This document shows positions 1,639-43,034 of a DNA stretch of 52,591 bases, in pieces. The position numbers and the translations under genes are program-made. The notes below the pieces were generated by a model that worked only from the letters and a program-made list of their open reading frames with translations, made no database searches and was not told the origin of the DNA. The DNA comes from Candidatus Kerfeldbacteria bacterium CG08_land_8_20_14_0_20_40_16. GTDB lineage: Bacteria > Patescibacteriota > Patescibacteriia > UM-FILTER-42-10. Each line of letters opens with the position of its first letter. Within the stretch, counting starts at the first letter, position 1. The stretch spans positions 1-52,591 of the forward strand of contig PEXU01000047.1 of NCBI GenBank assembly GCA_002774635.1. The letters run 5' to 3'.

Positions 1639-3102
1639 ATGGCCAAAAGAAATCTGGTACTGCCGGGCAATCCCCGCTACCAGCCCGTTTCACTGGTACC
1701 TTACTTTGGGTATGACAATTTGGTGCATTCGTGGATTTGGGTGGAATCGGCGCTTCTGAAAGCGCTCGCGGATATCGGTTATCTGCCGGATGATGCCGAA
1801 GCAGCTTTACGCTTAAGAGGCAGAGCGGGTTGGCAGACTCATCTGGAAAGCTGCATTACCACGACCAAGGTTGATTATCGGGAGAAAACGGCGAAAAGAA
1901 GAACTAAGCACGACATTCGGGCGCTGGTATTACTGATGCAAGAGAATCTTCCGCCGGAACTGAGGCGTTGGGTTCATTTTGGCGCTACGTCCTTTGACAT
2001 CCGCGACACGGCAGCAATCATTGATTTCAAAGCGGCGTATCAGAAAGTGACCGCTCCTACGGTTCGGAAGCTGGCTCTGGCAATAGCGGCAAAAACGGAG
2101 GAGTTTGCCGGAAAAATTCAGATCGGGCGAACTCATGGGCAGCACGCTCTGCCGATAACGGTAGGGTTCTGGCTGGCAACTATTTTGAACCGCCTGATGA
2201 CCGCTGGCAGAAATCTTGAGTTTGATTCCTTATCGCTCGTCGGTAAGTTCAGTGGAGCGGTCGGTGCTCACAATGCCCAGATTGGATTAGGAATCGAAAA
2301 AAAGTATCAGGAATGGCGCAGCGGCAAAAGTTTACCCGATACTTTCGAGGCATTTGTGCTGGCAAAACTCGGCTTAAAACCGGCTGCCGTTTCTACCCAG
2401 ATTCTACCGCCGGAGCCACTCTCCCGCTTTCTGTACAGTTATTTCCAACTTTCCGCCGTTTTAGCCCAGTTAGGCAACGATGGGCGCAATTTACAGCGCA
2501 CGGAAATTGCGGAAGTAATGGAAGTGTTTGAGAAAGGTCAGACCGGCTCGTCTACTATGGCGCACAAACGCAATCCGATTACTTTTGAAAACACTGCCGG
2601 CATCTTCAAAATCGTAAAGGCAGAATTCCTAAAGGTGATGGACTGCATGACTTCAGACCACCAGCGCGATCTGGTAGACAGCTCCGTAATGCGGGAATTT
2701 CCCGGCATTGTAGTGTTGGTTCAGTACCAGCTGGAGAGCCTGCTGCGCTTAATTCCGAAAATGGTTGTGGACCCGGAAGCGCTGAAGCGCAACTTCCAGC
2801 TTTCCGCCAACGTGATTCTGGCAGAGCCGATTTATTTGGCGCTGATTCTGGGCGGCTACCGGGGTGATGCGCACAAGTTTGTGAACCACACGCTTACCCC
2901 GCGTGCTAAAGAAAGCGGAAACCAAATAATCGTGGAACTGGAAAAAATGGCAAGACGTAGCCAGACGCTTCAGAAAGTACTGGAAAACATTCCCAAAGAC
3001 GTCCTTCGGTTACTGCATGATCCGCGAGAATATGTCGGTTCGGCATCGGCCGAAGCATTAAGAATTGCTTCAGGGGCTCATACACAGTTCTCTGAACATT
3101 AA
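1639..3102 (+). CDS. purB: Fumarate-lyase superfamily enzyme, most likely adenylosuccinate lyase (PurB-like)
   Basis: GSSTMAHKRNP signature loop of the aspartase/fumarase/ASL family. The purA remnant elsewhere in the window supports a purine role. 487 aa is longer than canonical PurB. Confidence 0.6.
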   Translation: MAKRNLVLPGNPRYQPVSLVPYFGYDNLVHSWIWVESALLKALADIGYLPDDAEAALRLRGRAGWQTHLESCITTTKVDYREKTAKRRTKHDIRALVLLMQENLPPELRRWVHFGATSFDIRDTAAIIDFKAAYQKVTAPTVRKLALAIAAKTEEFAGKIQIGRTHGQHALPITVGFWLATILNRLMTAGRNLEFDSLSLVGKFSGAVGAHNAQIGLGIEKKYQEWRSGKSLPDTFEAFVLAKLGLKPAAVSTQILPPEPLSRFLYSYFQLSAVLAQLGNDGRNLQRTEIAEVMEVFEKGQTGSSTMAHKRNPITFENTAGIFKIVKAEFLKVMDCMTSDHQRDLVDSSVMREFPGIVVLVQYQLESLLRLIPKMVVDPEALKRNFQLSANVILAEPIYLALILGGYRGDAHKFVNHTLTPRAKESGNQIIVELEKMARRSQTLQKVLENIPKDVLRLLHDPREYVGSASAEALRIASGAHTQFSEH

Positions 3103-3164
3103 CTCCTTAGCCGATTCTTTAGATTGTAGGGCGTGTACTTTTACCAGAAAGTGCCCGCCCTTTT

Positions 3165-3812
3165 TCATTCATAAAGCCAGAAATCATCACGGTCGATATG
3201 CCAGGCACTTAGCAGCTCGTCCGCCACCAAAGCAATGACATCTTTGTTCCAGTTAACTTGTTCGGCCCCCTCTCTTTCCAAAAGCACTGACCAAACAGGG
3301 CGCAAATCGTCATCTGATTGGTAAGCTTCGCATTTAGCGTAATATACTTTGTTTTCTTCTTGGTACAATGCTTTAAACAGCTCGGCGCATTTCAGTTTAA
3401 TGGAATTGAGATCCTCCAACACTTTAGTTTCATAATTGGTGGTGATTTCGTGTTCATCAGCCCAAAATCCCACCAGCGAAAAATACTCTTCCTGCTCGGA
3501 CATTCTTCGATCAGATTCGTTTTTAAAAAGATAAGGTTTGCCTTGGATATTATTGCCGGCCATTACCTCGCTGACGATTGATTTGATGTTAGCGATGCTT
3601 TCTTCCTTGTTTTCTAGTTCTTTCCCTGATTGGTTAGTTATTTCCTCAATAACCTTGGACTTTTCTTCGTAGTATTTTTCTTCCGCAGTTTTATTGCCTC
3701 CGCTCGCGTAATAAATAATCACAACGACGATTCCCGCCGCTATTATAGCCAAAACAGCAATTACTATAATTAATGTTTTTTTGGTGTTTTTCATAGGATT
3801 ATAATTAGTCAT
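3165..3812 (-). CDS. Single-pass membrane protein, function unknown. The start is probably at MTNYNP (3812), not at the upstream extension listed in the ORF track.
   Basis: N-terminal transmembrane helix (LIIVIAVLAIIAAGIVVVII) followed by a soluble acidic domain. The upstream in-frame extension runs into a GC-rich structured region. Confidence 0.45.
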   Translation of the reverse strand: MTNYNPMKNTKKTLIIVIAVLAIIAAGIVVVIIYYASGGNKTAEEKYYEEKSKVIEEITNQSGKELENKEESIANIKSIVSEVMAGNNIQGKPYLFKNESDRRMSEQEEYFSLVGFWADEHEITTNYETKVLEDLNSIKLKCAELFKALYQEENKVYYAKCEAYQSDDDLRPVWSVLLEREGAEQVNWNKDVIALVADELLSAWHIDRDDFWLYE

Positions 3813-3829: not shown

Positions 3830-4015
3830 CGACTAGCGAGGAGCAAAATGAAAGCTTGCTATCATTTTGGCCGAGCGACGCCTGCCTCCGCCGAAGCGAA
3901 GCCTCGGCTTCGCGCAGGTAGGTCGAAACACAGGGTAAATACCCCGTGGCTTGCCGCTTTTCCATTCAATCCCGCGGACGCGGGATTGGGGTCCAGGGCT
4001 TGCTCTGGGGTCAAT
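3830..4015. other. GC-rich structured island in a divergent intergenic region: multiple hairpins, including the 16-nt palindrome TCCCGCGGACGCGGGA. Candidate ncRNA or GC-palindrome element.
   Basis: Sharp GC spike against AT-rich flanks. Stems include gaagcctcggcttc and cccgcggacgcggg. The same 16-mer recurs at 38606-38621. Confidence 0.4.
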
Positions 4016-4108
4016 ACCCTTTATTATAGTATTTAATCCATTTTCTGGGAATTAAATATTTTTAGCTTATTATGCTACTATTAACTGGTAAACATTAAAG
4101 GCAAAACT

Positions 4109-27857: not shown

Positions 27858-27887
27858 GCTCTAGTCAAGAAGTAATAGAATTAACTC
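27858..27887 (+). promoter_or_regulatory. Promoter TTGACA-18-TAGAAT driving the cobalamin riboswitch
   Basis: ttgacagctctagtcaagaagtaatagaat. Confidence 0.5.
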
Positions 27888-27899
27888 ACCTTAACAATT

Positions 27900-28140
27900 G
27901 AAAGTTTAATCAGAGAGAAAACAGGGAACACCGGTGGCTCCCTCGTCAGACGAGGGGGGAATCCGGGGCAGACCCGCTACTGTGAGTTCTGAACGAAGTG
28001 AAGAAATCACCTCGAGCTTAGTCGAGAGGTGATTATTCCCCAGCTCAGAATAAGCCAGAGAACTGAATCTCTCTTGAGAAAGTCTTCTTTACTTTCTTCG
28101 CGGATAGAGAAAGGAAGGGTCTAATTTTTGCCTTCCTTGA
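27900..28140 (+). ncRNA. Cobalamin (B12) riboswitch with terminator-type expression platform
   Basis: AGGGAACACCGGTG core, B12-box-like CCGCTACTG, AAGCCAGAGAACTG (cf. AGCCAGGAGACCTGCC), and a terminal hairpin ggaagg...ccttcc + ttttttt. Confidence 0.7.
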
Positions 28141-36792: not shown

Positions 36793-37764
36793 ATGTTTGT
36801 AGTAATGATTGTCGTGCTGATGGTGTCTGCTGCTATTGTGATGACGTTTTTGCTCATCGGAAAAGCGGCAACACCAAGCCAGAGAAGAACGGCGGCTGAA
36901 ACGTCTCCTACAGATGTGACACAAAATCCGAATTGGCTTAGTCGTCGCTGGAAAAGGATTCGCGGCAATAAACCCTTCAAAGAATGGATGCGCACGTGGG
37001 GGACCTTCGGATGCTGGGTGTCTTTCTGGGCCGCCGAAATAATTTTGGTCGAGGTGAACAATCCGGGGTTCTGGAAGAAACTGTTGTTCGGCTGGGACTT
37101 TATGACTGTTGGCTTCTGGGTGATGCACGTTATTTTCATTTGGACCTTGGGAACCTGGGGTTCGGGGAAAAGCAAGGGAGCCCGGAAGTTTTCGGTTCTC
37201 CTATGCAACGTAGTATGGATCGGGCTCTTCGTGTTTTTTCAGAGCCAGATCCTAAATATTCCCTATTCTGATTGGTTATTTCGGAATGTGCTAAAAAACA
37301 GTAACCAGTCAGCCACTACGCAGACATACACCACGCCAGCAAACTACGAGAACTATATTGCTAGTCCAGCTCCTGGTATGATAATTGCCGGAGTGGTGCC
37401 AGAGGGTAAAGCGCCGGATGGCTCCTGGAAACTGCAGTATGTCTGCGATCTGAAGCCGGGTGAGAACCTCATTACCATTACCGAGGTAAACGGTCGTATC
37501 CGGGCGAACGGTCGCTACACTCGGTTTGAGAGCGAAAAGCTCTACGCCGATGTAGTGCGAGGCCCTCGCGATTGGGAATCAATTGAGATTTCTGACGAGG
37601 AAAGCCCACTTCGGCTCGCAGTGGGAAACCGACTGGTCCTGATCGCCGGCCCGGGCGAGGTACGGATGACTGTAACCAAGCTGACCCCCTTGTATGCCTA
37701 TATTGAGGCAGAACAGGGCGGTTCGGGAATCGTTCAACTTAAACTAACGGTGAGATCGAGCTAA
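36793..37764 (+). CDS. NfeD-like membrane protein (N-terminal transmembrane helices + C-terminal beta-barrel), probable partner of the SPFH protein
   Basis: Domain architecture and its operon position directly after the SPFH gene. Confidence 0.4.
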   Translation: MFVVMIVVLMVSAAIVMTFLLIGKAATPSQRRTAAETSPTDVTQNPNWLSRRWKRIRGNKPFKEWMRTWGTFGCWVSFWAAEIILVEVNNPGFWKKLLFGWDFMTVGFWVMHVIFIWTLGTWGSGKSKGARKFSVLLCNVVWIGLFVFFQSQILNIPYSDWLFRNVLKNSNQSATTQTYTTPANYENYIASPAPGMIIAGVVPEGKAPDGSWKLQYVCDLKPGENLITITEVNGRIRANGRYTRFESEKLYADVVRGPRDWESIEISDEESPLRLAVGNRLVLIAGPGEVRMTVTKLTPLYAYIEAEQGGSGIVQLKLTVRSS

Positions 37765-37774
37765 TGCTCGTTCT

Positions 37775-37818
37775 CAAGGCGGGGCGCGTGCTTTCGAAAG
37801 AGAGTGCCGCCCCTTTTT
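37775..37818 (+). terminator. Rho-independent terminator
   Basis: ggcggggcgcgtg...gccgcccctttttt. Confidence 0.55.
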
Positions 37819-37943
37819 TATTTTTGCTCTAAAACAAAAATTCCCATAAAGGGATATAGTATTTCGGAAAGTTTGTTACTGGTACTAGGGGTGGGGATTG
37901 TCACCCCGTACCAAAAAATATTATTGCTAAACAGTAAAGTATG

Positions 37944-38019
37944 TGGTAGCGGGGGTGGGGATTGAACCCACGACCTTGGGCTTATGAGTCCCACGCTCTA
38001 CCAACTGAGCTACCCCGCC
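37944..38019 (-). tRNA. tRNA-Met (CAT), elongator-type, CCA encoded
   Basis: GGCGGGGTAGCTCAGTTGGTAGAGCGTGGGACTCATAAGCCCAAGGTCGTGGGTTCAATCCCCACCCCCGCTACCA folds as a canonical cloverleaf. Confidence 0.85.
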
Positions 38020-38074
38020 TTAAAGTAGTTTTGAGTATTATTGCTAATTTAATGTAATCTTATATTTTTGCTAC

Positions 38075-38240
38075 GGGGTGAAAGTCCCACGCTCTTCCTG
38101 GGTGCTTAAGGTCACCTTTGGTGACATCTCCGCACCCGTCTCGGCGCTCGCCAAGACAAGTAAGTTGTCTTGCTTTCCGCGCCTCGACCCAACTGAGCCC
38201 GTCCGCCTCGGCTACGCCGAAGGCGTGCCGGGCGGGCTAC
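38075..38240 (-). other. Degenerate tRNA-Met-like duplicate (acceptor 5' strand + D-arm + anticodon-stem 5' strand) interrupted in the D-loop by a ~95-nt GC-rich hairpin-rich insertion
   Basis: GGCGGACGGGCTCAGTTGG-[insertion with hairpins ggtcacc/ggtgacc and caagaca/tgtcttg]-AGAGCGTGGGACT matches the tRNA-Met 5' half. Confidence 0.5.
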
Positions 38241-38247
38241 CCTGGCT

Positions 38248-38323
38248 TGGTTGCGGGAGGGGGATTCGAACCCCCGACCTCCAGGTTATGAGCCTGACGA
38301 GCTGACCGCTGCTCTATCCCGCG
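38248..38323 (-). tRNA. Initiator tRNA-fMet (CAT); C1xA72 mismatch, A11:U24, CCA encoded
   Basis: CGCGGGATAGAGCAGCGGTCAGCTCGTCAGGCTCATAACCTGGAGGTCGGGGGTTCGAATCCCCCTCCCGCAACCA. Confidence 0.85.
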
Positions 38324-38573
38324 TCGTGTTGTCTTTTATAATTTTAAAGAATCCATCTCCTCCTTTTTGTTTTTTAAAGAATATTTCTCTTTTTCTTGCC
38401 TGGCTAAGTTTATCGAATTTTTCTGAATAAATCAATTTCCAGTTCTTAAATCGCTTTGTCCAGGTAGATAATCCCTCATTATGTTCTTTTAGCCTTCTTT
38501 GGATATCAGAAGTAGTCCCAATGTAATACCTCTTATTTTCGCTTTGAATTATATATACTATGTACTTTTTCAT
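38286..38573 (-). CDS. Small GIY-YIG nuclease domain protein; the ORF's 3' end reads into the tRNA-fMet 5' end, so the true C-terminus is likely shorter
   Basis: YIVYIIQSENKRYYIGTTSDIQRRLKEHN (GIY-YIG with the R/E/N catalytic trio). Confidence 0.65.
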   Translation of the reverse strand: MKKYIVYIIQSENKRYYIGTTSDIQRRLKEHNEGLSTWTKRFKNWKLIYSEKFDKLSQARKREIFFKKQKGGDGFFKIIKDNTTRDRAAVSSSGS

Positions 38574-38589
38574 CTTATCATCCAGTAAC

Positions 38590-38645
38590 TATGAGCCTGA
38601 CGAGCTGATCCCGCGTCCGCGGGACTCTATCCCGCGTCGAATGCT
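38590..38645 (-). other. Partial duplicate of the tRNA-fMet 5' half (acceptor strand through anticodon, ending after CTCATA) in which the D-loop CAGCGG is replaced by the 16-nt palindrome TCCCGCGGACGCGGGA
   Basis: The minus strand reads cgaCGCGGGATAGAG-TCCCGCGGACGCGGGA-TCAGCTCGTCAGGCTCATAg, compared with the intact gene 290 bp away. Confidence 0.6.
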
Positions 38646-38707
38646 TAAGTATCTTAACTTATAAAAAAAAATCTGACAAGACAGGTGGTAATAGTAAATA
38701 TAGTCTT

Positions 38708-38795
38708 TGGTGGGCAAGGAGAGAATCGAACTCTCATGAGCTTACGCTCATACGATTTTGAGTCGTACGCGTCTACCAATTCCGCCACTCGCCCC
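38708..38795 (-). tRNA. tRNA-Leu (CAA), long variable arm, CCA encoded
   Basis: GGGGCGAGTGGCGGAATTGGTAGACGCGTACGACTCAAAATCGTATGAGCGTAAGCTCATGAGAGTTCGATTCTCTCCTTGCCCACCA. Confidence 0.85.
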
Positions 38796-38957
38796 TTTAT
38801 TTAATGTGTATACTTTTTCCGTCGGATGAATGTAGGGTTTATTATACCCCAAACCTAGCTACTATTTAAGATTCCCTTTCGTTGTAAAATAAGTCTAGAA
38901 ATAAAATACTTAACTGTCAACATTTCAATGATGTAAAAAATCAGCAAATCTGGTATA

Positions 38958-39752
38958 ATGATACAAGATTTTGTCTTTCAAAATAATATGGCTCGAATTA
39001 TTTCGCTGGTAAATCAAAAAGGAGGAGTGGGTAAAACCACTACCGCTGTTAATTTAGGAGCCTATTTAGCGGCGATGGGCCGTTTTGTCCTTTTGGTGGA
39101 CATTGATCCTCAAGGAAACGCATCTTCCGGAGTGGGAATCGATTTTAGAAAAGTGCAAAAAGGAGTCTATGAGGCAATTATTAAACAGGCTTCTTTTCGG
39201 GAAGTGACTCATCATACAGCGTTAGAAGGCTATAAAGTGGCCCCTTCCACAATTTCCTTGGCCGGCGCTAATATTGAGCTGGTGACGGTGGAAAACCGAG
39301 AACACAAGCTGCGCGAGAGCCTGTTAGAGGTCAAGAACGATTATGATTACATTTTAATCGATTGCCCGCCTAGCTTAGGATTATTGACGATTAACGGCTT
39401 AGTGGCCGCCGACGAAATTTTGGTTCCCGTGCAAAGCGAATACTATGCATTAGAAGGATTAGGGCAACTACTCCATACCGTTAATTTAATTAAGGAAAAT
39501 ATTAAGCCAGAACTCAAAATGTTGGGAGCGGTGCTGACCATGTACGACCGCCGCCACCAGCTTTCCAACGAGGTAATGTATGAGCTTTACAAATTTTTCC
39601 CCAGTAAAATATTTCGTTCCGTCATACCCCGAAACGTGAAGCTGGCCGAAGCTCCTTCTTTCGGCGAGCCGATTATTAAGTACGATCCCAAATCAAAAGG
39701 GGCCAAAGCCTACGAGAGGCTGGCCCGGGAAGTAATTGAAACAGAAGGATAA
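38958..39752 (+). CDS. parA: Chromosome partitioning ATPase ParA/Soj (start probably MARIISL at 38988)
   Basis: Deviant Walker A KGGVGKTT. Confidence 0.9.
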   Translation: MIQDFVFQNNMARIISLVNQKGGVGKTTTAVNLGAYLAAMGRFVLLVDIDPQGNASSGVGIDFRKVQKGVYEAIIKQASFREVTHHTALEGYKVAPSTISLAGANIELVTVENREHKLRESLLEVKNDYDYILIDCPPSLGLLTINGLVAADEILVPVQSEYYALEGLGQLLHTVNLIKENIKPELKMLGAVLTMYDRRHQLSNEVMYELYKFFPSKIFRSVIPRNVKLAEAPSFGEPIIKYDPKSKGAKAYERLAREVIETEG

Positions 39753-39764
39753 TCAGATAAAAAT

Positions 39765-40631
39765 ATGAAACACAATAGCAGCTTGGGTCGGGGATTAGCC
39801 GCCCTGATTCCCATCAAAAAAGAATCGACTATTTCTACCGCAGAGCTGGCCAGGACTGAAGTAGAAAGGGTGCAAGAGGTTCCGGTTTCCCAAATCCAGA
39901 ATAATCCCATGCAGCCCCGGCACCATTTCGACCACCATTCGGAAGAGGAATTGGTAAATTCTATTAAAGAGCACGGAATTATCCAGCCGCTGATTGTTAC
40001 TAAAACAGATCAGGGCTACCAGCTGATTGCCGGAGAAAGAAGATTAAGGGCCGCTAAACTGCTGGAGCTAGCAACGGTTCCAATAATTTTAAGAAACGCT
40101 TCCCAGCAGCAAAAACTGGAGGTTTCCTTAATTGAGAATATTCAGCGGCAGGATCTTAATCCTGTTGAAGAAGCCCAAGCTTACCGTCGGCTGATGGATG
40201 AATTTAGCCTGACCCAAGAGCAGTTGGCCAACCGAATGGGCAAGAACCGCGCCACTATTGCTAATATCATTCGGGTCCTAGAGTTGCCCGAGGAAGTCCA
40301 AAATGCCCTGATTGACCGAAAGATTACCATTGGGCACGCCAAAGTGCTTTTGTCGCTGGATAACCCTAAAGATCAAATCAACACTTTTAAAAAGATTTTG
40401 CGCGGGAACCTTAATATTCAAGAAACAACCAGGATCATCAGAAAAATCCAGCCGAAAGGAGAGAAAACAATCGACTTTGCTCTTCAAGAAAAAGAAGAAA
40501 AACTAAGAGCGGCGCTGGCCACTAAAGTGAATATTGAAAAGAGGGGGAATAAAGGAAAAATCGTGATCGCATTTTATTCCTCTGAAGAAATGGATTCCCT
40601 TATTAGAAAGATATTAGGCAACGATCGCTAG
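39765..40631 (+). CDS. parB: Chromosome partitioning protein ParB/Spo0J
   Basis: ParB box GERRLRAAK, HTH, and a C-terminal dimerisation region. Confidence 0.9.
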   Translation: MKHNSSLGRGLAALIPIKKESTISTAELARTEVERVQEVPVSQIQNNPMQPRHHFDHHSEEELVNSIKEHGIIQPLIVTKTDQGYQLIAGERRLRAAKLLELATVPIILRNASQQQKLEVSLIENIQRQDLNPVEEAQAYRRLMDEFSLTQEQLANRMGKNRATIANIIRVLELPEEVQNALIDRKITIGHAKVLLSLDNPKDQINTFKKILRGNLNIQETTRIIRKIQPKGEKTIDFALQEKEEKLRAALATKVNIEKRGNKGKIVIAFYSSEEMDSLIRKILGNDR

Positions 40632-40736
40632 TGTAGATTTTTTGGATGTTGATGGAATATCTATTGTTCGATTGCTCGATTATTCTATTGTTACCAGCTA
40701 AGTTTAACAATAAAACTAATCATTAGCAGGAATTAA

Positions 40737-43034
40737 ATGTCGTTTAAATTTTTATCCAAGGTAAATAATTCCCAAAAATCAATGGGCGATAAAATAATCA
40801 ATTGGTGCCTTTCTTTAATTATTTTTTTCTTGCCTCTTTTCTTTTTTCCACTTTCCGTAAGTACTTTGGAATTGAACAAGATGTTTTTGTTCTATTTATT
40901 AGTCTTTATTGCTTTTTTAACCTGGATTATCAATTCGGTGTTAAGAAAAGAATTGGTAATCAAACACAGTTTTTTAAATACCTTAATAATCATCTTCGGA
41001 TTAATTTACCTGCTGGCCTCTATTTTTTCTGACGATCGCTTTTTAAGTTTTATTGGCGCCCCTTTATCGCATGGCAGTTTCTTAGCGCTTCTATTCTTTA
41101 TTATTTTCTATTTTCTGGTTACCAACACAATCAGGGGAATAGAAGAAGGATGGCAATTACTGCGGCTGTTTTTGTATTCCGGGATATTGATTGTAATTTT
41201 TAACCTAGCCCAGCTTTTTGGAGTGCATATTTTGCCTTTTGATTTTACCCAGAACAGCGCTTTTAATTTAGTGGCTAATTCCGTTTCTATTCTCGCCATT
41301 TATTTAGTGGTCTTGTTTGTGATTGGACTCGGTTTTTTAATCAGAAGCACTAAACAAACAGAAAGAATATCCAGCGAAGTTTTTTTGGTGCTAGTATTCG
41401 CTCTCCTCTTTTTCTTAGATCAAGATATTGGCTGGTATTTATTAATTTTTGGCTTATTTGCTTGGCTGGTATTCCTTTCTATGCAATCAAAGAGAATAAA
41501 AGCATTTTGGGTGATTCTGCCCACTGTTCTTTTGATTATTTCCTTAGCCTTTTTATTTTTTTCCACCACTTCATTGACCTGGCTGAATCCTCCCACCGAT
41601 TTGAAGCTTGATTATCATACCACGCTCACAATAACCAAATCCAGTCTGACGCACTCTCTTATTTTAGGATCCGGCCCCGAGACTTTTCATTACGATTTTA
41701 GTGCTTATCGGCCAGTTGATTACAATAATTCTATTTTATGGCAATTGCGTTTTGATCGTTCCACTAATGAATTTTTTCAATTAATCATTACGGCCGGGTT
41801 TTTTGCCTTTCTCGCTTTTATCATAATTTCCCTCTGGTATCTAATAAGAGTAGGTAAGAATATTTTGGTATCCAGCGCCATCAAAGATGAATGGTATTAT
41901 CAATCAGTAATTTTTTCGGGATTTTTAGTTATTTTCTTAAGTGGTTTTCTTTACCCTTTTAGTACCGCTACCAGCTTTATTTTCTGGTTCTTATTGGCAT
42001 TGGGAGGGTTATTCTTAAACCGAAAAGAGGTGAAATTAAATCTTCAGAAATCAGCCGGAATCAATTTTATTTTCTCGCTTGGTTTTTCTTTACTATTAAT
42101 CGGTGCCGTTTCTTTTATTTATTTTGGGATGAGAATTTGGCTGGGAGATTATTATTTAGCTCAAGCTCAAACCACCTTTGAGGAAACCAACAATCCTTTG
42201 TTGGCCATAGAAAAACTGGAAAAGGGAGTAAGTCTTAGTCCTTGGCTGGCTGCGCCTCATTTGGCCCTGGCCGATGGTCTGATGGTAAGCGCCAATTATT
42301 CGGTACAGCAAAATGATGCTGCTAGTACCGGGAACTTATTAAATAGAGCGGAACAGGAAATAGAGCTGGCTATCAAAAAAGAGCCTAAGAATGTGGTGGT
42401 CTATGAACATGCTGGTGAGATTTATCAGCTGATTAGCAAAGCCGGCGGTTCAATAGCCAATGAAAAAATAATAGCAGTCTATGAAAAAGCGATCGAGCGG
42501 GAATCAAACAGTCCTTCTCTTTATTTAACTCTAGGCAGTGTCTATTTTTCGCAAGCCCAAATTATTCAAGCTCGAATTGATAATTCCCAAGAACCAACCG
42601 GAGAAGAAAGCGATTTAGAGACCGCTACTCAAAATGCCTTGGAAAAGATAAAAAGAGCTACTGAATTGAAATCAGATTACGAAAACGCGGAACAGCTTTA
42701 TGCTCAAGTTCTAGAATTTCAAGGAAAGTTCTCAGAAGCGGTTGAATATCTTAATACTGCCTTAGCGAACAATGCAGCCAGCTTAACTCTCTTAGAAGAA
42801 AGGGGTAAGGCACTGTTAGCCGAAGAAAAATTAGAAGAAGCCCAAAATGATTTCCTGACCATTTTAGCGCTGGCGCCCAATCACGCTAATGCCCATTATT
42901 GGTTAGCTTTGATTTACGAGAAGCAAGGGGAAAAAGATAAAGCAATAGCAGAATTAGAGCAGGTTTTAAAAACTAATCCGGGCAATTCGTTAGTGACCCA
43001 AAAAATCTCCCAGTTAAAGGGAGAATCAAATTAA
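40737..43034 (+). CDS. Polytopic O-antigen-ligase (Wzy_C)-like membrane protein with C-terminal TPR repeats
   Basis: ~12 transmembrane helices; TPR-like repeats in the C-terminal ~300 aa. Confidence 0.55.
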   Translation: MSFKFLSKVNNSQKSMGDKIINWCLSLIIFFLPLFFFPLSVSTLELNKMFLFYLLVFIAFLTWIINSVLRKELVIKHSFLNTLIIIFGLIYLLASIFSDDRFLSFIGAPLSHGSFLALLFFIIFYFLVTNTIRGIEEGWQLLRLFLYSGILIVIFNLAQLFGVHILPFDFTQNSAFNLVANSVSILAIYLVVLFVIGLGFLIRSTKQTERISSEVFLVLVFALLFFLDQDIGWYLLIFGLFAWLVFLSMQSKRIKAFWVILPTVLLIISLAFLFFSTTSLTWLNPPTDLKLDYHTTLTITKSSLTHSLILGSGPETFHYDFSAYRPVDYNNSILWQLRFDRSTNEFFQLIITAGFFAFLAFIIISLWYLIRVGKNILVSSAIKDEWYYQSVIFSGFLVIFLSGFLYPFSTATSFIFWFLLALGGLFLNRKEVKLNLQKSAGINFIFSLGFSLLLIGAVSFIYFGMRIWLGDYYLAQAQTTFEETNNPLLAIEKLEKGVSLSPWLAAPHLALADGLMVSANYSVQQNDAASTGNLLNRAEQEIELAIKKEPKNVVVYEHAGEIYQLISKAGGSIANEKIIAVYEKAIERESNSPSLYLTLGSVYFSQAQIIQARIDNSQEPTGEESDLETATQNALEKIKRATELKSDYENAEQLYAQVLEFQGKFSEAVEYLNTALANNAASLTLLEERGKALLAEEKLEEAQNDFLTILALAPNHANAHYWLALIYEKQGEKDKAIAELEQVLKTNPGNSLVTQKISQLKGESN

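Follow-up and report, generated by a model that had tools for sequence, protein, structure and literature searches.

A small GIY-YIG nuclease gene beside hairpin-interrupted tRNA copies in a Kerfeldbacteria genome and a probable family of tRNA-gene cassettes

The entire 52.6-kb contig of Candidatus Kerfeldbacteria bacterium CG08_land_8_20_14_0_20_40_16 served as the window for this analysis, which concerned a cluster of transfer RNA (tRNA) genes in which a small open reading frame (ORF) for a GIY-YIG nuclease lies between a hairpin-interrupted partial tRNA copy and an intact tRNA gene. ARAGORN and Rfam were concordant in placing three intact tRNAs here (Leu, initiator, and Met), all on the minus strand, and thus recovered the intact tRNA-Met and tRNA-fMet genes reported in an initial annotation made from the sequence alone. 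That annotation had also called the genome AT-rich; the GC content of the window was 42%, which is moderate but not strong AT-richness. Read along the minus strand, the order was tRNA-Leu, partial fMet copy, ORF, and intact initiator tRNA, and the features were as follows.

38794..38708, minus strand: intact tRNA-Leu(CAA), found with ARAGORN and Rfam
38651..38679, minus strand: promoter-like site TTGTCA-17-TAAGAT, a consensus match alone, 11 nt upstream of the fMet copy
38625..38639, minus strand: part A of the fMet 5' copy, CGA plus tRNA positions 1-12 (CGCGGGATAGAG), an exact 15-nt repeat of 38312-38326
38609..38624, no strand assigned: GC-rich 16-nt palindrome TCCCGCGGACGCGGGA in place of the D-loop CAGCGG, fold of -10.2 kcal/mol
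38590..38608, minus strand: part B of the fMet 5' copy, tRNA positions 19-37, with its CTCATA end in the anticodon loop, an exact 19-nt repeat of 38287-38305
38286..38573, minus strand: GIY-YIG nuclease ORF, 95 aa, 34% GC, Pfam PF01541 at E=1.2e-17
38248..38323, minus strand: intact initiator tRNA(CAT), C1/A72 mismatch, CCA encoded, 65.3 bits
37944..38019, minus strand: intact tRNA-Met(CAT), acceptor GGCGGGG, 69.3 bits, inside a 182-nt cassette bounded by inverted repeats

The C1/A72 mismatch in the intact initiator gene is typical of bacterial initiators. The exact 15- and 19-nt repeats that flank TCCCGCGGACGCGGGA bore out the earlier description of a 5'-half copy of this gene with a 16-nt palindrome as its D-loop. 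The nuclease ORF lay between this copy and the intact tRNA-fMet, and its 3' end overlapped the tRNA, as had also been described: the final 38 nt of the ORF were tRNA positions 1-38, and its stop codon was the TAA in the anticodon loop of the intact gene. The copy did end after CTCATA, but the relevance that had been given to this classical tRNA-intron position fell away with the lack of any intron signal. Upstream of the copy, the promoter-like site at 38651..38679 was one of four consensus matches in the region (2.2 expected) and was not significant by itself; to judge from its position, it is possibly the resident tRNA promoter, which would now drive the copy, the ORF, and the tRNA. Because the ORF ends within the tRNA (38286-38323), a cut by RNase P at the 5' end of the tRNA would take the last 12 codons and the stop off the ORF mRNA, and processing of tRNA-fMet may limit nuclease expression in this way.

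Such a layout could have ordinary causes: an artefact of assembly, an intron in the tRNA gene (group I or another type), or a duplicated attachment (att) site left by an integrase island. tRNA genes frequently serve as integration sites, at which partial copies are left behind (PMC9897764), and Patescibacteria tRNAs often contain group I introns (PMC13011429). Against an artefact, the region 37663-41573 was 100% identical in six separately assembled contigs (ENA/MEGAHIT, SPAdes, and Logan; several samples), so that the assembly chimera that the initial annotation had allowed for was contradicted by six of six independent assemblies. A group I intron was rejected because no Intron_gpI match was obtained with Rfam even at E<=10 and the downstream tRNA was complete (65.3 bits). 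The folding and intron check proposed earlier, carried out with ARAGORN and Rfam, returned the three intact tRNAs and no intron family, and Rfam at gathering and permissive thresholds gave no family for the copies or the hairpins. An integrase island with attL and attR was rejected as well: the insert was 263 nt long and held one GIY-YIG ORF, the 5' part of the tRNA was what had been duplicated (an att core is usually the 3' end), and no integrase domain was present among the neighbours. Taken together, ordinary causes were hardly credible. As a separate observation, contigs of the independent assemblies L001-L006 tended to end in or beside the tRNA cluster (at 37799, 37929, 37934, 37971, and 38269), and the end of the L074 contig was the tRNA-Leu; these breaks may reflect repeats or population heterogeneity.

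The ORF product matched Pfam PF01541 over residues 3-70 with 64.4 bits (cutoff, 22.6; E=1.2e-17). Residues Y7, Y17, G19, R27, H31, and E63, among them the catalytic Tyr, Tyr, Arg, and His and the metal-binding Glu, were invariant across 23 sequences. When a profile built from the ORF together with its four closest homologues was compared with the PDB, the best matches were the UPF0213 proteins EF2693 and BH0048 (1ywl, E=3.9e-15; 1zg2, E=2e-13), followed by SLX1 at about 5e-5. An AlphaFold2 model of the product (pLDDT, or predicted local distance difference test, 77.9) had the beta-beta-alpha-alpha-beta-alpha fold of GIY-YIG domains, and its top Foldseek matches were 1zg2, 7cq3 (Slx1; root-mean-square deviation of 2.0 A over 74 columns), 6seh, and 1ywl and then UvrC (1yd6). 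The product is thus predicted, from sequence and model, to be a minimal single-domain Slx1/UPF0213-like nuclease. The homing-endonuclease type named in the initial annotation did not survive these comparisons. The I-TevI/Seg type was ruled out because the 95-aa protein has a single domain and its score against TIGR01453, the group I intron endonuclease model, was 20.9 bits, far under the cutoff of 56.05. A HUH (Y1) transposase of the repetitive extragenic palindrome (REP)/REP-associated tyrosine transposase (RAYT) type or the IS200/IS605 type was also absent from the cassette, in which GIY-YIG was the sole domain. Stand-alone prokaryotic Slx1-like domains have been described, one of them fused to a tRNA Gm18 methyltransferase (Dunin-Horkawicz 2006, PMC1564403).

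The same layout was present beside many tRNA genes across many bacterial phyla. A word-index search recovered four homologues with 46-53% identity, and all four adjoined a tRNA with the same anatomy (tRNA-Glu, tRNA-Phe, or tRNA-Lys). In loci L007 and L010, the order was a tRNA-Glu copy of positions 1-17, CCAGCCAGAGGCTGGTCCGCCTATGGCGGA, positions 18-25, the ORF, and the intact tRNA-Glu. Locus L009 was the mirror image, with an intact tRNA-Phe, the ORF, and then a 3' copy that carried CCTGTCTGCCGACAGGCAGG in the T-loop between positions 56 and 57. In L008, a tRNA-Lys abutted the ORF and a degenerate second unit preceded it. The wider samples comprised 63 loci from one genome per GTDB species and 80 loci from JGI metagenomes. 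Two of these loci (L147 and L148) had the Kerfeldbacteria layout at a tRNA-Met(CAT), with a copy of positions 1-31, a hairpin, positions 32-40, and then an ORF that overlapped the tRNA by 39 nt and stopped at the anticodon-loop TAA.

In the pooled set of 145 homologous loci, 81 tRNAs within 300 nt of an ORF were on the same strand as the ORF and 1 was on the opposite strand, and 25 different isoacceptors were occupied. The ORF was upstream of the tRNA in 45 loci, 20 of which overlapped the tRNA 5' end, and downstream in 24. An exact word of at least 12 nt was common to the far side of the ORF and the adjacent tRNA in 50 of 69 loci (72%), whereas tRNAs of other isoacceptors, used as the control, gave 17/690 (2.5%). 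When the loci scored as lacking a copy were inspected by eye, most held short or diverged hairpin-bearing copies (L122, L129, L134, L153, L118, L099, L098, L087, and L083).

Adjacency to tRNAs separated this ORF from its YhbQ-like relatives. The Kerfeldbacteria ORF belonged to a [WL]KLIYSE cluster that was distinct in sequence and in genomic context from the VKLIYSE (YhbQ-like) cluster. Among loci with enough flanking sequence, 43/45 [WL]KLIYSE ORFs were adjacent to a tRNA, compared to 3/27 of the YhbQ-like VKLIYSE class and 19/44 of a KLIYYE class; an earlier split into two clusters had given 31/34 versus 2/33. The result that the initial annotation had set against its own proposal, a generic housekeeping nuclease unrelated to tRNAs, was therefore not what we found, since the ORF falls in a subclass separate from the YhbQ-like one.

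These data bear on a domesticated arrangement, in which a host nuclease gene would be co-transcribed with tRNAs and the hairpin-bearing partial tRNA would act as an RNA leader or trailer for processing or stability. Hairpins close to mRNA ends can stabilise transcripts, the ORF was always co-oriented with the tRNA and often overlapped it, a promoter-like site preceded the copy, and the ORF was under strong purifying selection (see below). Such an arrangement would not account for 25 isoacceptors with the ORF on either side of the tRNA, for the occupation of different tRNAs of the same cluster in related genomes, or for truncated ORFs and ORF-less footprints, both of which were common. In addition, the hairpin stems described below have no G-U pairs, which speaks against an RNA helix, and an RNase P cut at the tRNA 5' end would remove the ORF stop codon in the window. 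We thus regarded domestication as very improbable.

The inserts in the copies all folded as perfect or near-perfect hairpins or double hairpins. Simple insertions were mainly in the D-loop (often after G18G19), the anticodon loop (between positions 36 and 37), and the T-loop (positions 54-57), and other hairpins substituted for a whole arm. The density of GC-rich perfect hairpins was 2.8 per kb up to 200 nt from these ORFs and 0.30 per kb in the remainder of the same loci, a 9-fold difference, whereas the YhbQ-like class showed no enrichment (0.17 versus 0.20 per kb). Hairpin families followed ORF lineage across phyla and across different tRNAs. For example, the 20-mer CCTGCCTGCCGGCAGGCAGG was identical in L019 (annotated as Levybacteria; tRNA-Asn), L021 (annotated as Bacteroidales; tRNA-Arg), and L104 (tRNA-Asn), and the ORFs of these three loci were 60-66% identical in protein and 57-61% identical in DNA, with saturated synonymous sites. 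A double hairpin, CCAGCC-N3-GGCTGG plus TCCGCC-N3-GGCGGA, recurred at tRNA-Glu and at three tRNA-Ser species. In the comparison of L007 and L010, the 30-nt double hairpin was identical at 30 of 30 positions, while the ORF had a ratio of nonsynonymous to synonymous change (dN/dS) of 0.05 with 58% of its synonymous sites changed. The ORF is under strong purifying selection, and the hairpin is better conserved than the ORF.

The initial annotation had proposed repeated invasion of tRNA loops by selfish GC palindromes. Recurrence stood, because the 16-mer has a second copy in the window and similar hairpins occur in other genomes; independence did not, because hairpin type tracks nuclease lineage. 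Given that co-variation, the palindromes seem to be part of the cassette, or partners to it, and not independent invaders. Under the alternative, autonomous GC hairpins, similar to REPs, mitochondrial GC clusters, and double-hairpin elements, would have landed in dispensable structured DNA with no relation to the nuclease. This would fit the exact second copy of TCCCGCGGACGCGGGA at 3970-3985 (0.13 matches expected even with 3 mismatches allowed), which is at the apex of a hairpin island with no ORF or tRNA nearby, and also the tandem hairpin copies downstream of the tRNA in L147, the tRNA clusters of L027 and L077 with many ORF-less hairpin remnants, and the entry of mitochondrial hairpin elements into RNA-gene loops (PMC2800124). 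It leaves unexplained why hairpin families follow ORF lineage over phyla and tRNAs and why hairpins are enriched 9-fold beside these ORFs and not beside YhbQ-like ORFs. Moreover, the 16-mer was present just twice in the 52.6 kb, where other GC hairpins were few; with 9 GC palindromes versus about 2-3 in shuffled sequences, the window was not flooded. Independent palindromes were therefore an improbable explanation.

Several observations on the hairpins stand apart from this comparison. The island at 3830-4020 was a GC-rich intergenic stretch of nested hairpins (z=-4.3 and -4.5 on the two strands) with TCCCGCGGACGCGGGA at its apex, and no tRNA, Rfam family, or GIY-YIG ORF was found nearby. In L147 (1520-1640), the hairpin that interrupts the copy was found again three times, in tandem and inverted, immediately downstream of the intact tRNA. 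Snap-back templating of the hairpins from the local tRNA was tried as an origin and failed in general. It held for L026, perhaps for L007 (a 7-nt match), and for the Kerfeldbacteria 16-mer, in which GACGCGGGA repeats the start of the tRNA and is accompanied by its complement (9 nt direct and 7 nt reverse complement).

A second interrupted copy was present on the tRNA-Met side of the cluster. The 190-nt stretch directly after the initiator tRNA was 61% GC and folded much better than shuffled sequences (z=-5.2); readings of this region as signal recognition particle RNA, 6S RNA, or transfer-messenger RNA (tmRNA) were dismissed by eye, and ARAGORN found no tmRNA. The features on this side were as follows.

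38236..38246, minus strand: old tRNA-Met piece 1, GCCAGGGTAGC, positions 1-11, from repeat comparison with the intact gene
38199..38235, no strand assigned: hairpin insert H1, 37 nt, 81% GC, nested hairpin CCGCC..GGCGG, -26.3 kcal/mol
38189..38198, minus strand: old tRNA-Met piece 2, GCTCAGTTGG, positions 10-19, from repeat comparison with the intact gene
38096..38188, no strand assigned: hairpin insert H2, 93 nt, two stem-loop domains, after D-loop G18G19, -46.3 kcal/mol
38083..38095, minus strand: old tRNA-Met piece 3, AGAGCGTGGGACT, positions 21-33, 94% over 16 nt
38062..38082, no strand assigned: left terminal inverted repeat of the tRNA-Met cassette, TTCACCCCGTAGCAAAAATAT, 24-nt arms, 88% complementary
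37901..37921, no strand assigned: right terminal inverted repeat of the tRNA-Met cassette, ATATTTTTTGGTACGGGGTGA, complement of the left repeat
37880..37900, minus strand: old tRNA-Met 3' piece, CAATCCCCACCCCTAGTACCA, positions 56-76, 86% to the 3' end of the intact gene

Pieces 1, 2, and 3 were colinear and were split by two GC-rich inserts. Thus, the Met insertion was GC-rich and hairpin-forming, as had been reported, but the single insert of about 95 nt became two inserts of 37 and 93 nt, of which the earlier reading had caught the larger alone. The 5'-half copy of tRNA-Met was likewise real but was not the full account, because the 3' piece at 37900..37880 makes this a split gene. The acceptor of the 3' piece (CCCTAGT) could pair with the 5' acceptor (GCCAGGG) at 6 of 7 positions, one G-T wobble included, and acceptor pairs 2-71 and 4-69 had changed on both sides relative to the intact gene. 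This pairing and these two-sided differences identify the pieces as the two ends of one formerly functional gene that is separate from today's intact tRNA-Met. The 182-nt segment between them had 21-nt terminal inverted repeats and carried the intact tRNA-Met. A 12-nt direct repeat, TATTATTGCTAA, was also observed within the cassette, at 37919-37930 and 38036-38047 on either side of the intact gene.

The inverted repeats and the conservation of the hairpins raised another explanation, a hairpin-guided transposon. Here, the nuclease would recognise its cognate palindrome or hairpin as a DNA structure, comparable to the use of hairpin ends by RAYT/REP and IS200/IS605 enzymes, and, acting like a transposase and not like a classical homing enzyme, would move a hairpin- or inverted-repeat-bounded unit into the exposed loops of extruded tRNA-gene cloverleaves. 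In an alignment of nine double hairpins, 9 of 12 stem pairs varied on both sides and G-T pairs were found in 0 of 108 cells; the set had been chosen as hairpins, which biases the paired fraction. Because no G-T pair was present in the 108 cells, the stems fit a DNA palindrome better than an RNA helix. Two-sided Watson-Crick changes without wobble are what a transposon of this kind would predict, and it would also fit hairpins that are lineage specific and better conserved than the ORF, the closeness of the fold to the Slx1 structure-specific nucleases, insertion at loop tips, the 21-nt terminal inverted repeats of the Kerfeldbacteria tRNA-Met cassette, the inverted recurrence of the L147 hairpin beyond the tRNA, and the inverted repeats around tRNA-less sister-class ORFs (11/32 versus 2/26 controls).

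Other results were difficult to reconcile with a transposon. A hairpin was found on both sides of the ORF-tRNA unit in just 3 of 30 loci and was usually on one side, and the idea that hairpins are terminal inverted repeats around this unit was rejected for that reason. Neither a target-site duplication nor a conserved flanking motif was seen, and the short tRNA piece between the hairpin and the ORF would be left without a role. GIY-YIG transposases are not known from prokaryotes. On balance, we considered the transposon unlikely and a serious rival nonetheless to a homing-like explanation.

The sister-class repeats were observed in KLIYYE ORFs without an adjacent tRNA, 11 of 32 of which were bracketed by inverted repeats of 12-23 nt that touched the start and stop codons; the loci concerned include L109, L138, L154, L121, L110, L132, and L096 (metagenome). 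The core of these repeats, CCCCGTAG / CCCGGTAG, resembled the 5' end of a tRNA as well as the inverted repeat that bounds the Kerfeldbacteria tRNA-Met cassette. Elsewhere in the window, a cobalamin riboswitch aptamer was found at 27886-28084 on the plus strand (Rfam RF00174; 38 bits versus a gathering score of 31.5).

Through ParA homologues, we reached related genomes in which parAB adjoins the same Leu-fMet-Met cluster and used them to examine occupancy. In L075 (ParA 84% identical), tRNA-Leu was occupied by an 84-aa GIY-YIG ORF, upstream of which lay a hairpin-bearing 5' copy of that tRNA, and tRNA-fMet had neither an ORF nor a copy. L077 and L078 (75% identical) had no ORF. In these genomes, the resident tRNA-Leu was split into 5' and 3' pieces, each touching hairpins, which flanked an intact tRNA-Leu with a different acceptor stem, and hairpin-bearing 3' pieces of tRNA-fMet were also present. 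Because the ORF of L075 is at tRNA-Leu with fMet empty and L077 and L078 have footprints without an ORF, occupancy varies among relatives. Some cassettes appear to have brought a complete replacement tRNA, namely, the Kerfeldbacteria tRNA-Met and L077. Stacked remnants in L012, L017, L022, L087, and L097 and tandem or degenerate units in L008 and L025 pointed to repeated events, and some copies differed from the adjacent tRNA by compensatory changes (the L032 T-stem and the Kerfeldbacteria Met acceptor). With the adjacency of 4/4 homologues and 43/45 subclass ORFs to a same-strand tRNA, and with hairpin-interrupted copies on the far side in most of these loci, these results gave strong comparative support to the initial suggestion that the locus is the footprint of a mobile element that targets tRNA genes.

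Two further features of the relatives were recorded. The tRNA clusters of candidate phyla radiation (CPR) bacteria at L027 (1800-2300) and L077 (2850-3900) held additional ORF-less, hairpin-interrupted tRNA pseudogenes; footprints of this kind may be common and a possible source of error in tRNA annotation. Each of the three tRNAs of the L075 cluster (2400-3350, minus strand) was followed by a repeat of about 90 nt (GGGTCAT..GTTCCGTGTCTGCAAATTATTGCATTCACTTCACC..CCCACCGAGCTTTGCTCGTCGGGG).

We conclude that these loci probably represent a family of tiny selfish tRNA-gene cassettes built on a minimal Slx1/UPF0213-like nuclease and that at least two insertions have left footprints at the Kerfeldbacteria locus, although we hold this with considerable reserve. 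The fMet unit would be an active-looking segment of about 260 nt (the 263-nt insert) between a dead 5' tRNA copy and a working gene, probably transcribed from the promoter of the tRNA itself. The comparisons establish the layout and how often it recurs, the rules of strand and side, the conservation of the hairpins, purifying selection on the ORF, and occupancy that varies among relatives; cleavage, the position of the target, and the way in which the cassette is transferred are our inference. The nuclease would make or exploit a break in a tRNA gene, and the break would be repaired from a cassette-bearing copy with the conserved tRNA sequence as portable homology, through homing, Campbell-type insertion, or homology-facilitated insertion. 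The outcome would be a displaced partial tRNA copy, the ORF, and a reconstituted intact tRNA, or the mirror image of this order. In a variant of the last step, the cassette would supply the whole replacement tRNA, as suggested for the Kerfeldbacteria tRNA-Met and L077. The loop palindrome of the dead copy appears to be a conserved, lineage-specific DNA module of the cassette. Most likely, it would destroy the cut site or disrupt a direct repeat through which the ORF would otherwise be lost, and it may double as the nuclease's own binding site.

Several points weigh against these selfish cassettes. The protein has about 85-95 residues and no DNA-binding domain, so sequence-specific recognition of many tRNAs would be hard to picture. 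The pieces of the dead copy were 100% identical to the intact tRNA in most loci, which means that the working gene is not visibly immune to cutting at the hairpin position. This explanation does not account for the origin of the hairpins, most of which were not templated from the local tRNA. Among the relatives, no precise pair of empty and filled sites with alignable flanks was found, and a search of viral contigs and phage genomes gave no relative and no evident vector. Finally, the sampling was seeded with one peptide motif, and the majority of the loci came from metagenome-assembled genomes (MAGs).

A broader and more doubtful possibility is that the loci represent an unrecognised class of prokaryotic mobile DNA. 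An Slx1-like GIY-YIG nuclease and a co-evolving palindrome would form a two-part system that enters tRNA genes at exposed loops and at the same time restores a functional tRNA, and sister lineages would be mini-elements bounded by inverted repeats outside tRNA genes. This would be the first bacterial GIY-YIG transposase-like system, it would extend over many phyla, and it would be a major source of CPR tRNA pseudogenes and tRNA gene replacement.

Parts of this anatomy have counterparts in known systems. Fungal mitochondrial endonuclease ORFs reportedly bring a replacement for part of the host gene with them when they insert, and a displaced, dead partial copy is said to remain; in Allomyces atp6, a mobile endonuclease ORF is said to bring a duplicated piece of the target gene. 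The targets in these cases are organellar protein-coding genes. Yeast GC clusters, Allomyces double-hairpin elements, and sponge repetitive hairpin elements (RHEs) are, like the inserts described here, short GC-rich hairpins in the loops or variable regions of structural RNA genes and in intergenic DNA (PMC2800124). They are organellar and have no known cognate enzyme, whereas the present hairpins co-vary with a nuclease lineage and lie in dead tRNA copies. We treat the resemblance as an analogy and not as membership, given the bacterial context.

The closest known analogue is T4 SegB, a GIY-YIG nuclease whose gene is also lodged in a tRNA cluster (PMC2330249). The 27 bp that SegB recognises include the T-psi-C stem-loop motif conserved in tRNA genes, and SegB spreads itself and neighbouring tRNA genes through break-induced gene conversion (PMC2330249). 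As a phage protein of the Seg/I-TevI type, SegB has two domains, and its locus lacks partial tRNA duplicates and hairpin inserts, whereas the present ORFs encode single-domain proteins of about 80-95 aa, are chromosomal, occur in many phyla, and were not found in viral collections. With I-TevI/Seg homing genes, they share the position of the ORF against its presumed target tRNA and presence or absence that differs among relatives (L075 and L077). The minimal stand-alone GIY-YIG domain and its catalytic residues are those of UPF0213/YhbQ and Slx1 (PDB 1ywl, 1zg2, 7cq3, and 6seh; PMC1564403). The sampled YhbQ-like subclass differs in that it is not linked to tRNAs (3/27) and shows no hairpin enrichment, and Slx1 differs in that it acts with Slx4 on branched DNA in eukaryotes. 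The Caldiarchaeum recombinase element (PMC3293823) and the att tRNA fragments of integrases (PMC9897764) are similar in that a partial and a full tRNA flank a mobile insert, but these elements are kilobases long and carry a recombinase or integrase, compared to about 260 nt and a GIY-YIG nuclease here.

A 2026 survey of tRNA gene interruptions in Patescibacteria described only group I introns, with HNH, LAGLIDADG, or PD-(D/E)XK endonucleases, and GIY-YIG genes and hairpins were not mentioned in it (PMC13011429). Our full-text literature search found no account of small GIY-YIG genes that abut bacterial tRNA genes with hairpin-interrupted partial copies, which is an absence within one library and not proof of novelty. 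The closest existing category is that of free-standing GIY-YIG endonuclease elements that target tRNA genes, and there is a real chance that the present family is a separate class.

If the cassettes are what they appear to be, a compact element (<0.4 kb) that is widespread over phyla would join the catalogue of bacterial mobile DNA. It could account for many of the unannotated tRNA fragments and "extra" tRNA-like calls in MAGs, and it would give a route for horizontal replacement of tRNA genes in which the tRNA itself is the homology handle. A large clade of uncharacterised GIY-YIG or "UPF0213-like" ORFs would gain a biological role, and the enzyme would be a very small nuclease that looks programmable if it recognises tRNA-gene structure or its cognate palindrome. 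The cassettes would also link bacterial chromosomes with the puzzling hairpin elements of mitochondria and with gene-fragment duplications driven by endonucleases.

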